Below are positions 50,301 to 53,300 of a stretch of DNA of 64,000 nt, piece after piece. The DNA is from Trypanosoma brucei (lineage: Eukaryota). Position 1 is the first letter of the stretch. Each line of letters opens with the position of its first letter. The position numbers are program-made. The stretch covers positions 1,760,001-1,824,000 of the forward strand of contig CM000207.1 in NCBI GenBank assembly GCA_000002445.1, read 5' to 3'.

Positions 50301-53300
50301 GCGATGTGCCTCAGAGCCGAAGAAACCCGTTTGGCTAACTAACTTAACTGGCACGGCGTTTCGCCCCTTTGATGTCGACTTTCAGCGAGACGCACTGGAC
50401 GCAATGCAGTCGATGAATGTTGGGGAGATCAGGCACAATGGACGGTACCACACTAATTTGGTCGAGTTAGCTTTTAAAAACGGCATGGACACTAGTAGTG
50501 TGCGTGACATGTGTGCGGCCGTGCTAGCAGCGCAGCTAGCCCATCCGGTGCAATGGATTGATGTGATGGATTCTGCTGTTTTTCAGCATGGTGTGCGCGA
50601 GGCCCATGAAATATCACCGGTAAGGACTGTTGCGGATATGTTCAAACGTACGGTTTTTCGAGGGAGGACATCAGACGCCTCGGTCGGAGAGGCGGCGTTG
50701 GATATAGTAACGCGCTGCCTGCCATCCGAGGAACGTTTCTTGTAGGTGGTGATTTTAATCAGAGTTTTCGCGATGGGTGGTACATTGGTTTCGTAGCCGT
50801 TGTTCGGTTATTGTTTCTTTTTGTTTACATCAGTCACCAACACAGTTGTATGAATGTAGCGTGTTAGTGACTACTTCCTCCTTCGTGTTCGAAGGTGTGG
50901 TGAGCTTTGTGCTTTTTCCCGTCTCCATCCTAACCTCTACCTGTCTGTGCATATACTTGTATTTTTTTTCCACTCAAATTCCTGATAAATAGTGCAGGTC
51001 TGTTTAGTTACCGTGGACATCTAACGCTTTACTGTCTCGTAGACGCGGCAGCTCGGGAAAACACTGCATCGGAACGTGACATAGTGAATGTTTAGGGTAT
51101 ACACTCGTCGACTGAGTAGCTTGGGGCCGTTCTGTGGGTCGAGGAAATGTCTGCTATGGTGGGGCTATAAAGAAGGAGACCTTCATAGGATTGCGCGTCA
51201 GAGGCCATGGTGGGAAAATGCGGCTATTTTTGCCGGGCTTCTTTGCTTTATTCAGGCATCCAGCATGTGTTATTACTTCGGCAACCGCTGGTATCAGGCG
51301 ATTCGGCCCTCAGGCAACGATTTGTATATTAACAGAGCCATGGATACAAAAGTGTTTTCGAGGCCCGATCTGTCCGTAGCGGCCGTGCGGATGGTAATTC
51401 ATCACGCCCTTTCAGGCGCTCAAACCCCGTTTGGAGTTCCCATGGTATATCCCGAGTATATGAAGCCTGAGGCAGAGGAGTTAATGGAGTTTATACTGCA
51501 GCTAAACCATGAACAGCCAATGTTTTCTATCCCCGATCTTTGGGCGCTGTTTTCGGCAAAAGCACTTGCCCGTTTGGGGGGGCCGAGTATTTCAGTTCAT
51601 CGAGGGAGATCAGACCCACCCAACGATGTACCCGCTGACCAGTTGTTGATTTCCACTCCCTCTCTTGTACCGGAGTCTAAGCGAGACGTGCTTAACATGA
51701 AGCGGCTGCTTTCTCGTCAAGGGTTCGCAGTTGATGAAATTGTCGCCATGTTGGGTGGAATCCGTAATATTGGCTTTCACGAAAGTTCGGGGTTTCATAC
51801 TACTGAGGAGGTGAAGCCCCAGATGCGCCGTCGACCGGGTGTCATGGGGCCAGAGGAAGATGTGTATCACATACCAGATACTCCGCAGAAGTGCACATTA
51901 GATCCATACGTGTTTGGAAGTGAGTATTTTGATCTCCTTCTAGATTACAACTGGAAACAGAATACTTCCCTTTTTCGCCGTAGTGGTCCTTTCCACTGCA
52001 GTGAGAACGATCGCAAGCGTGAAGTCCTGTTGTTGGATCCATTTTCAGAGCAGGCCATGGAACGTGAGCGTAAACGCCTTCAAGCCGAAGAGCGGGCTCG
52101 TGAGTCCGTGGAGCGAGCGGCACTGAAGAGACATCCCAGTTTTGATGAAACGACATCCATCACTGGGGGGCGCGACGGTGAGGCACAGCCCATAAGCGGC
52201 GTGATGAGTGAACTCAATGAAGATGAAGGGATCAACGTCAAGTCACTGGTTGAGGTACCCGAGTTTAAGAGCCCCTGCTCAAGCGTGTCAATGAGGGAGG
52301 TTGATGTACTATTATTGGACGACGCCCTGCTAACGGGTTGGATGCATCGATTCAGCGCTAACGAAATATTATTTTACGATGTATTCGGCACCGTTATGGA
52401 AAAAATTCAATGTCGCGGATACAACCTGAACTCGCTATATCTGCCTTAGCGTGAGGGTTTCGTTACCATCACCTCTTCTATTCTCTTCTCTGCATTTTTG
52501 TTTTTGTTCTATCGCCTCATTTTCTTTTCTTTTTACACATACCAAGACTTCGTTTTCTGCATCTTGTCGAAGTTCCCCTACTACACACTTTAATCTACCA
52601 CGCAACAACCTTCTGGAAGATAGCTGTGCGAATAACTGCACATCAGTTTACTACCTAAAAAGAAATCAACAATGGTTGGGAATGATGGTAATGCTAAAAC
52701 ATAAGCTGAAGAAAGGAGATGTATATGGCGCAGCTATAAGGTCTCCGTGTGTGAAGACGATGCTTGCCGCACTTTTTCTTTTCTTCACTTTCTTTTCCTC
52801 TTGATTAATAAAATTTACCTTTTCAATTCCCCCAAAAATAACGAAATAATGTGTGATCGTGCAGCTTGTGGGTGAGGAAATCAGAACCTCCTCTAGTTAA
52901 ATAAACAAATTCAAAAAGAATAGCTTCAGGCAAAATAAAGACAAGGGCCGATGGGGCAGCAGAAAAAAGATGCGGCTCAATCTGTAGCTGCCGTTGCTGC
53001 TCAGAATGTTGACAGTTACCTTCGCGGTGTGACGAGTCGAGCCCGAGTTCCTTCGGCAACTGGCGGAAGAGGTACGCGTCGTAGGCTGGCCTCCCAGGCA
53101 GAAGTCGCTGCAGCCAAGATCAAGGAGCAACCTAAGTCTCTTGATGACTTCGCTGACGCTGATAATGGTGATGATGAGTGGGAGGAAGTGATGTTACCCA
53201 CCTCATTTACACCGTCTAGCAGCACAAAACCCGAGGTAAAGGTGAAAGATGAGAAAAATGGCATCGTGGAAACCCCAGAATTTGGTGCAACAGGACCGAA

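Follow-up and report, generated by a model that had tools for sequence, protein, structure and literature searches.

Tb927.9.11910 of Trypanosoma brucei is a conserved mitochondrial peroxidase-like protein predicted to lack the proximal heme histidine

Introduction

What is the task of a peroxidase-like gene in Trypanosoma brucei, when African trypanosomes have no functional ascorbate peroxidase (APX; PMC4395405, PMC7237987)? This question is raised by an open reading frame (ORF) at 51088..52449 of a stretch of 64,000 nucleotides from T. brucei contig CM000207.1 (positions 1,760,001 to 1,824,000 of the forward strand), which we call the window. From the DNA alone, the original prediction had described a membrane-anchored protein of the APX fold without the proximal heme histidine, had stated correctly that African trypanosomes lack a functional APX, and had suspected a crippled APX gene of unclear function. 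In this study, we found that the gene, Tb927.9.11910, encodes a conserved kinetoplastid pseudoperoxidase, which is an ancient paralogue separate from the APX and cytochrome c peroxidase (CcP) enzymes. The label of a pseudoperoxidase candidate was therefore fair, as the distal Arg and His are kept and the proximal His is missing, and the idea of a leftover was not borne out.

Identity of the gene and its peroxidase fold

The ORF listing of the window gives a frame from ATG to stop on the plus strand, which encodes 453 amino acids (aa).

51088..52449, + strand: complete ORF, 453 aa plus stop, Tb927.9.11910 (Tb09.211.3030, UniProt Q38DK3), identified by computed mass and TrypTag arm match

The computed mass of the protein, 51.808 kDa, is the value published for Tb927.9.11910 in the table of Peikert et al. 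2017, where the gene is annotated as 'hypothetical protein, conserved' (PMC5436138). TrypTag tags Tb927.9.11910 at the C-terminus with a primer whose homology arm of 80 nt is found at 52367-52446 of the window with 0 mismatches. Together, the mass and the primer prove that the ORF is Tb927.9.11910, and its place between Tb927.9.11900 and Tb927.9.11930 supports the same identity. A T. equiperdum protein named 'peroxidase, putative' has the same sequence, with 100% identity. A literature search by gene ID found no mention of Tb927.9.11910, Tb927.9.11900, Tb927.9.11920, Tb09.211.3030 or Q38DK3 in the main texts of the papers searched, and a literature search on a T. brucei peroxidase-like protein and its proximal histidine gave no match.

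Tb927.9.11910 has the class I (APX/CcP) peroxidase fold. Its match to Pfam PF00141 'peroxidase' reached 40.8 bits (E=2.8e-10), with a curated cut-off of 27, which disposes of the objection that no hidden Markov model (HMM) of the peroxidases would recognise it. When phmmer was run against the PDB, the best matches were solely APX and CcP (E about 1e-4), and the family profile matched ascorbate and cytochrome c peroxidases only among all PDB sequences. The alignment of 19 orthologues with 15 canonical class I sequences by hhalign gave a probability of 99.6% (E=5.5e-24, 239 columns) and was collinear over aa 91-450, just as the ORF had first been read. The AlphaFold2 model from 43 family sequences, with a mean pLDDT of 81 and a pTM of 0.70, has the all-alpha two-domain fold of class I heme peroxidases, which belong to the peroxidase-catalase superfamily. 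An earlier model from 19 sequences was weaker (pLDDT 63), and its top Foldseek matches were the same enzymes, APX and CcP.

Residues of the heme site

Canonical residues were numbered according to pea APX, as in PMC8069737. The corresponding positions, called kept or lost as judged by alignment, are as follows.

51388-51405, + strand: distal motif RMVIHH, aa 101-106, aligned to canonical 'vRLaW[H]' by hhalign
Distal Arg38 (pea APX): R101, kept
Distal Trp41 (pea APX): I104, lost
Distal His42 (pea APX): H105, then H106, kept
51577-51621, + strand: GGP...GR.D loop, aa 164-178 GGPSISVHRGRSDPP, aligned to GGPEVPFHPGREDKP of APX
51733-51780, + strand: helix F, aa 216-231 DEIVAMLGGIRNIGFH, placed by alignments; the AlphaFold2 helix spans 215-226
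51760-51762: proximal His163 (APX) or H175 (CcP), I225, lost
His169 (APX, heme propionate) or His181 (CcP): H231, kept
Ascorbate-binding Arg172 (APX): S233, lost
Proximal Trp179 (APX) or W191 (CcP): C269 (Thr in Leishmaniinae), lost
52303-52305: proximal Asp208 (APX) or D235 (CcP), D406, kept

The distal Arg-x3-His pair is present, as had been predicted, and hhalign aligned both R101 and H105, which are invariant among trypanosomatids. The GGP...GR.D loop is also retained, and its residues G164, G165, P166 and G173 are invariant throughout the whole family. On the proximal side, D406 pairs with the Asp of canonical 'MlP.D' in hhalign and is nearly invariant family-wide. R101, H105, H231 and D406 are all invariant in the 19 orthologues. 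According to the alignments, four canonical residues have been lost, namely the proximal His (I225), the proximal Trp (C269), the distal Trp (I104, the Ile that had already been noticed) and the ascorbate-binding Arg (S233), and position 233 is variable (S/A/D/V/G). We believe that, with the proximal His-Asp-Trp triad broken and the distal Trp gone, the protein is unlikely to perform conventional compound I chemistry.

The replacement of the proximal His was the central claim of the original prediction, and it held in every alignment. I225 stands at the proximal-His column in phmmer against soybean APX (GGIRNIGFH against GGHTIGAAH), in the alignment of the family profile to the APX of T. cruzi and L. 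major (valiGgirn against VALIGAHTC), and in the MAFFT alignment with canonical sequences. The register of hhalign is shifted by one and puts R226, a family-specific residue, at this column. A His at the proximal column was found in none of the alignments (phmmer, family profile, MAFFT, hhalign), and the residue there is not His in any orthologue. The His of 'FHE', which had been named as a possible ligand, is H231, and it aligns to APX His169, which binds a heme propionate and is not the iron ligand.

An active heme peroxidase with another axial ligand and a donor other than ascorbate would be a different answer to our question. The ligand would be H231 or H237 after rearrangement, or Cys224/Cys227 in Leishmaniinae, which carry 'GC.RC' around the proximal site. 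Besides the intact distal Arg-x3-His pair and proximal Asp, this view can appeal to the invariant H231, which lies six residues after I225, where a flexible insertion starts. The L. major pseudoperoxidase (crystal structure 5via) is a precedent for unusual ligation, and Cys/His ligation of this protein was reportedly described by Saha and colleagues in 2013. However, H231 is the propionate His, which sits beside the true ligand in canonical enzymes and in the His-retaining members of the family, and it needs no new role. In Trypanosoma, the Cys residues proposed as ligands are not conserved, residue 225 varies freely, and T. brucei lysates show no APX activity (PMC7237987). We regard an active enzyme as improbable.

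Loss of the proximal histidine

Of the 1.84 billion representative proteins covered by the profile search, 26 were recovered as representatives of the family at E<1e-30. A gap separates them from the following matches, which begin at 4e-14 and appear to be canonical peroxidases, as those inspected are. In a site table of 52 sequences, column 225 is occupied by I/A/D/Y/T/S/N/V/L/M, and never by His, in all trypanosomatid and sister sequences. Seven distant members, one of which comes from the free-living kinetoplastid Neobodo designis, read 'G-HRT[LVI]G.H', with His exactly at column 225 and the family-specific Arg after it. These His-retaining clades carry Lys or Tyr in place of the distal Arg, and the full catalytic set was found in no sampled family member of the site table.

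Would an alignment artefact explain the missing ligand, with a His really at the proximal position? The similarity to canonical enzymes is marginal for single sequences (E about 1e-4), and hhalign and HMMER differ by one residue. However, neither register yields a His (I225 or R226), the relatives reading 'G-HRTxGxH' fix the column independently of the canonical enzymes, and helix F of the AlphaFold2 model ends at 226, as in canonical enzymes. We consider such an artefact very unlikely.

A neighbour-joining tree from 283 columns, with 100 bootstraps, was rooted on canonical enzymes. The two clades that retain the His branch off at its base, with support of 96 and 86, and the sequences without the His are nested within it. 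Because the support of the His-lacking group itself is below 60%, a single early loss of the proximal His is the simplest reading only tentatively. As far as the sampled sequences tell, the loss predates the trypanosomatids. Members from free-living relatives retain the His, those from trypanosomatids and the nearest relatives with known sequences lack it, and together they form a natural series for the change from enzyme to pseudoenzyme.

Orthologues, synteny and the relation to APX

If the APX that African trypanosomes have lost had left Tb927.9.11910 behind as a pseudogene or a decaying remnant, both the missing APX and the missing catalytic ligand would be accounted for. However, each of the sampled trypanosomatids has an orthologue (T. 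cruzi, T. grayi, T. rangeli, T. melophagium, T. vivax, Leishmania, Porcisia, Leptomonas, Novymonas, Strigomonas and Angomonas), including species with active APX, and T. cruzi and Leishmania carry both APX and an orthologue of Tb927.9.11910. The orthologues of T. cruzi, Leishmania and Leptomonas, which have a working APX, are likewise without the proximal His, and those of T. cruzi and Leptomonas are syntenic. The gene order of acyltransferase, peroxidase-like gene, Rad4/XPC and RPA3 is the same in T. cruzi and Leptomonas pyrrhocoris. TcAPx lies at another locus, between CLPTM1 and G6PDH (PMC4395405), and the comparison of synteny thus gave positional orthologues that coexist with APX, with no locus shared with the kinetoplastid APX-CcP (TcAPx/LmAPX).

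Studies have shown that APX is missing from T. brucei, T. congolense and T. vivax (PMC4395405) and that T. brucei lysate has no APX activity (PMC7237987). Both reports concern the other paralogue, not Tb927.9.11910, and the missing activity fits a non-peroxidase role of Tb927.9.11910.

Synonymous sites are saturated at the distance between T. brucei and T. cruzi, and constraint was measured as protein identity relative to flanking genes. Between T. brucei and T. cruzi, Tb927.9.11910 is 72% identical and the two flanking genes are 68% and 55% identical; between T. brucei and Leptomonas, the values are 54% for Tb927.9.11910 and 51% and 49% for the flanking genes. On this measure, the gene is under purifying selection. 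The gene is more conserved than its neighbours and has only 14-21% identity to kinetoplastid APX, which speaks against a remnant; moreover, the ORF is intact, and its product was detected with 11 peptides and is imported into mitochondria. A decayed APX or pseudogene is ruled out by synteny, conservation and proteomics, and it is the least credible of the explanations that we weighed.

A divergent orthologue of 500 aa with 38% identity is encoded at 2828-4330 of a contig from Logan SRR7085473. On this contig, an acyltransferase gene lies immediately upstream of the orthologue and Rad4 lies two genes downstream, with very short intergenic spacers, and the sequence is likely to come from a non-trypanosomatid kinetoplastid. 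Among the Leishmania orthologues, the models of L. guyanensis, L. donovani and L. infantum have 369 aa and start at a Met equivalent to M102, which omits the presequence, the transmembrane (TM) anchor and the distal Arg; other Leishmania models and that of Porcisia have 470 aa. The short models are probably mis-annotated start codons.

Mitochondrial location, membrane anchor and insertions

Tb927.9.11910 is expressed as a protein and is mitochondrial. Peikert et al. 2017 identified it with 11 peptides (38% coverage), and after ATOM40 knock-down its abundance fell to 0.51-fold in whole cells (p=0.0018) and 0.63-fold in organelle fractions, which placed it in the ATOM40-dependent importome (PMC5436138). 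In Supplementary Data 2 of the same study, it is positive by TargetP and MitoFates. The C-terminal mNG-tagged protein was scored as 'mitochondrion' by TrypTag (PMC9981465), and the mitoproteome of Zikova et al. 2017 lists it under 'unknown', as a protein that is also seen in bloodstream forms (PMC5739487). With the published localisation and the ATOM40-dependent import, we take it as an imported mitochondrial protein of T. brucei.

The regions outside the heme site are as follows.

51088..51150, + strand: aa 1-21 MFRVYTRRLSSLGPFCGSRKC, basic, presequence-like and poorly conserved N-terminus without acidic residue, positive by TargetP and MitoFates
51151..51216, + strand: aa 22-43 LLWWGYKEGDLHRIARQRPWWE, juxtamembrane motif, recognised by identity between species
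51217..51285, + strand: aa 44-66, single predicted transmembrane anchor (Kyte-Doolittle, AlphaFold2 helix)
51781..51888, + strand: insertion 1, aa 232-267, after helix F, partly of low confidence (hhalign insertion; pLDDT <50 at 246-256)
51889..51969, + strand: conserved core, aa 268-294 KCTLDPYVFGSEYFDLLLDYNW..., with C269 in the place of the proximal Trp (hhalign)
51970..52272, + strand: insertion 2, about aa 295-395, without counterpart in canonical peroxidases (hhalign)
52273..52446, + strand: aa 396-453, canonical C-terminal helices with C397, M402 and D406 (hhalign; pLDDT >90)

The protein begins with MFRVYTRRLSSLGPF and is basic there, like a trypanosome presequence, and aa 1-21 show just 24-38% identity between species. 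The best-conserved segment is aa 22-43 LLWWGYKEGDLHRIARQRPWWE, which shares 91% of its residues with its counterparts in both T. cruzi and Leptomonas, compared with 54% overall for Leptomonas. Its core '[HK]R.A[RK]..P.W' before the TM helix recurs throughout the wider family, even in the distant His-retaining members, and the motif might be a sorting or cleavage signal or a partner-binding site. The N-terminal hydrophobic anchor of the original prediction was recovered at aa 44-66, where the top Kyte-Doolittle window (1.54) covers aa 46-64, and a long helix of the AlphaFold2 model (41-72, pLDDT 88-96) covers the predicted TM segment.

A C-terminal extension of about 150 aa had also been predicted; in fact, the extra length is made up of two internal insertions (aa 232-267 and about 295-395), and the final 58 residues form the canonical helices. 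In hhalign, canonical 'ws..p..FsN.YF..L....W' pairs with 'KcTlDPYVFGgEYFdlLLDY.W' in the core of aa 268-294, and canonical 'l.MlP.D.aLl.D...' pairs with 'hVSMr.iDvMLLDD...' in aa 396-453, with which the weak second domains of HMMER agree. Insertion 2 was modelled as short beta strands, a long helix (321-348) and an acidic disordered stretch, with low pLDDT at 353-390. C304 (51997-51999) lies inside insertion 2 and C397 (52276-52278) just past it. In the site table, both are kept in nearly all His-lacking members and mostly missing from the His-retaining ones, and they could form a disulfide that closes the insertion or merely mark the clade.

These two cysteines also brought up a classical substrate of the MIA/Erv1 (disulfide-relay) pathway, for which the case is weak. 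ERV1 knock-down lowered Tb927.9.11910 only to 0.81-fold, and the protein has no MIA-like or Cx3C/Cx9C flag in Peikert et al. 2017 (PMC5436138).

Possible function in the mitochondrion

Trypanosomatids cannot synthesise heme and must deliver heme to mitochondrial cytochromes. A non-catalytic role in heme or redox biology may be sought in a strongly conserved, expressed and mitochondrial protein such as this one, a tractable candidate that has lost the proximal ligand to the iron and keeps other residues that face the heme.

We speculated that the short presequence drives import, that import halts at the single TM helix (aa 44-66), which stays in the inner membrane (stop-transfer), and that the peroxidase-like domain faces the intermembrane space. 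This arrangement would follow from the analogy with LmAPX and yeast CcP, for which the same orientation has been proposed, and from the positive charge N-terminal of the TM helix. The domain may still accept heme, weakly or reversibly, by propionate contact and perhaps by the distal His105/His106. We favour weak heme acceptance because part of the heme cleft (R101, H105, H231, D406) is invariant while the Fe-His bond is gone. The protein would then act as a heme or peroxide sensor, in heme hand-over or as a regulatory subunit, and not as an H2O2-reducing enzyme, and the two lineage-specific insertions and the conserved juxtamembrane motif would probably bind partners. Weak or reversible non-canonical heme binding, with a role in sensing, hand-over or regulation, is the explanation that we prefer, as a tentative choice and far from a certain one.

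Several points weigh against it. The topology is taken from analogy and charge, the register of hhalign leaves a local alignment uncertainty at the proximal site, the canonical heme-edge motif 'GRLPDA' is not conserved in the phmmer alignment, and conservation of the distal Arg does not extend to the wider family. Because of the last two, the heme cleft may be a mere structural relic.

A heme-free scaffold is an alternative that we hold to be doubtful but serious. In this case, a membrane complex of the mitochondrion would have recruited the peroxidase fold as a subunit that binds no cofactor, or as an assembly factor, in the manner of plant TL29/APX-L, and the conserved 'catalytic' residues would persist for folding or partner binding. 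However, R101, H105, H231 and D406 are invariant in trypanosomatids, which is more than a relic should keep. Tb927.9.11910 also carries no flag in the respiratome, ATPase and ribosome sets (Peikert Supplementary Data 2), and no solved complex in the PDB has a chain identical to it.

Weak heme binding could be carried one step further, to a dedicated mitochondrial heme-handling factor of kinetoplastids, derived from a His-ligated membrane-anchored peroxidase in which the loss of the ligand made heme binding reversible. Such a factor would agree with the invariant distal His-His, propionate His and proximal Asp, with the strong conservation and with the location in mitochondria; we still regard this specific proposal as unlikely. 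If it were true, the protein could serve these heme auxotrophs as a buffer or sensor of imported heme or could pass the heme on, and the unusual single-cysteine cytochrome c/c1 maturation system or heme A synthesis would be possible targets.

Whatever the function, the labels 'ascorbate-dependent peroxidase', 'cytochrome c peroxidase' and 'hem peroxidase' overstate the support that the sequence gives, and they imply an antioxidant enzyme that T. brucei lacks.

Comparison with known peroxidases and pseudoperoxidases

The closest structures are those of the kinetoplastid APX-CcP (L. major 3riv; T. cruzi 7opt/7oqr), with 14-21% identity to Tb927.9.11910. Unlike these enzymes, Tb927.9.11910 lies at another locus, and hence it is a paralogue and not an orthologue; it is without the proximal His, the proximal Trp and the distal Trp, and it adds insertions of about 36 aa and about 100 aa and the conserved motif before the TM helix.

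The L. major pseudoperoxidase LmPP reportedly lacks the distal His (Val90), keeps the proximal His206 and has Cys107 as the sixth ligand. Tb927.9.11910 is the reverse of this, with the distal His kept and the proximal His lost as far as the alignments indicate. The V90/C107/H206 pattern, in LmPP numbering, is absent from the Leishmania orthologues of Tb927.9.11910, and in the structural ranking 5via stands below APX, CcP and lignin peroxidase as a neighbour. An identity of the two proteins was rejected on the absent residue pattern and on 5via being a more distant structural neighbour than APX or CcP; LmPP (5via; Bose et al. 2012) is a different gene, with 18% identity to Tb927.9.11910.

Plant APX-L/TL29 (Arabidopsis, 3rrw) has an independent origin, because the family profile of Tb927.9.11910 does not recover it, and Tb927.9.11910 does not belong to the Archaeplastida APX-L clade. 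TL29 is soluble in the thylakoid lumen, whereas Tb927.9.11910 is TM-anchored, mitochondrial and keeps the distal Arg and His. Yeast Ccp1, in contrast, is a bona fide His175-ligated enzyme, which is released as a soluble protein and has no such insertions. Pseudoperoxidases as such are already known, and we rate the family of Tb927.9.11910 as an independently evolved, membrane-anchored mitochondrial pseudoperoxidase clade.

Neighbouring genes and other features of the window

All gene-like ORFs of at least 200 aa in the window are on the plus strand, and the window reads as a trypanosome polycistron. The genes around Tb927.9.11910 are as follows.

48997-50745: upstream neighbour, acyl transferase-like Tb927.9.11900 (PF00698)
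52951-55257: downstream neighbour, TbXPC Tb927.9.11930, with Rad4/XPC domains
56074-56457: RPA3-like ORF of 127 aa, which matches the RPA3-like (PF08661) gene of T. cruzi in position and size

The acyl transferase-like neighbour Tb927.9.11900 is itself in the mitoproteome, and Tb927.9.11930 has been published as TbXPC (PMC4138998).

Elsewhere in the window, three MatE (MATE transporter) genes stand in tandem at 24038-25549, 25853-27364 and 27967-29454. The proteins of the first two are 97% identical, and their differences cluster near residues 40-60 and 268-283. In the intergenic region upstream of the ORF at 57759, positions 57395-57433 are a perfect (TA)19.5 microsatellite.

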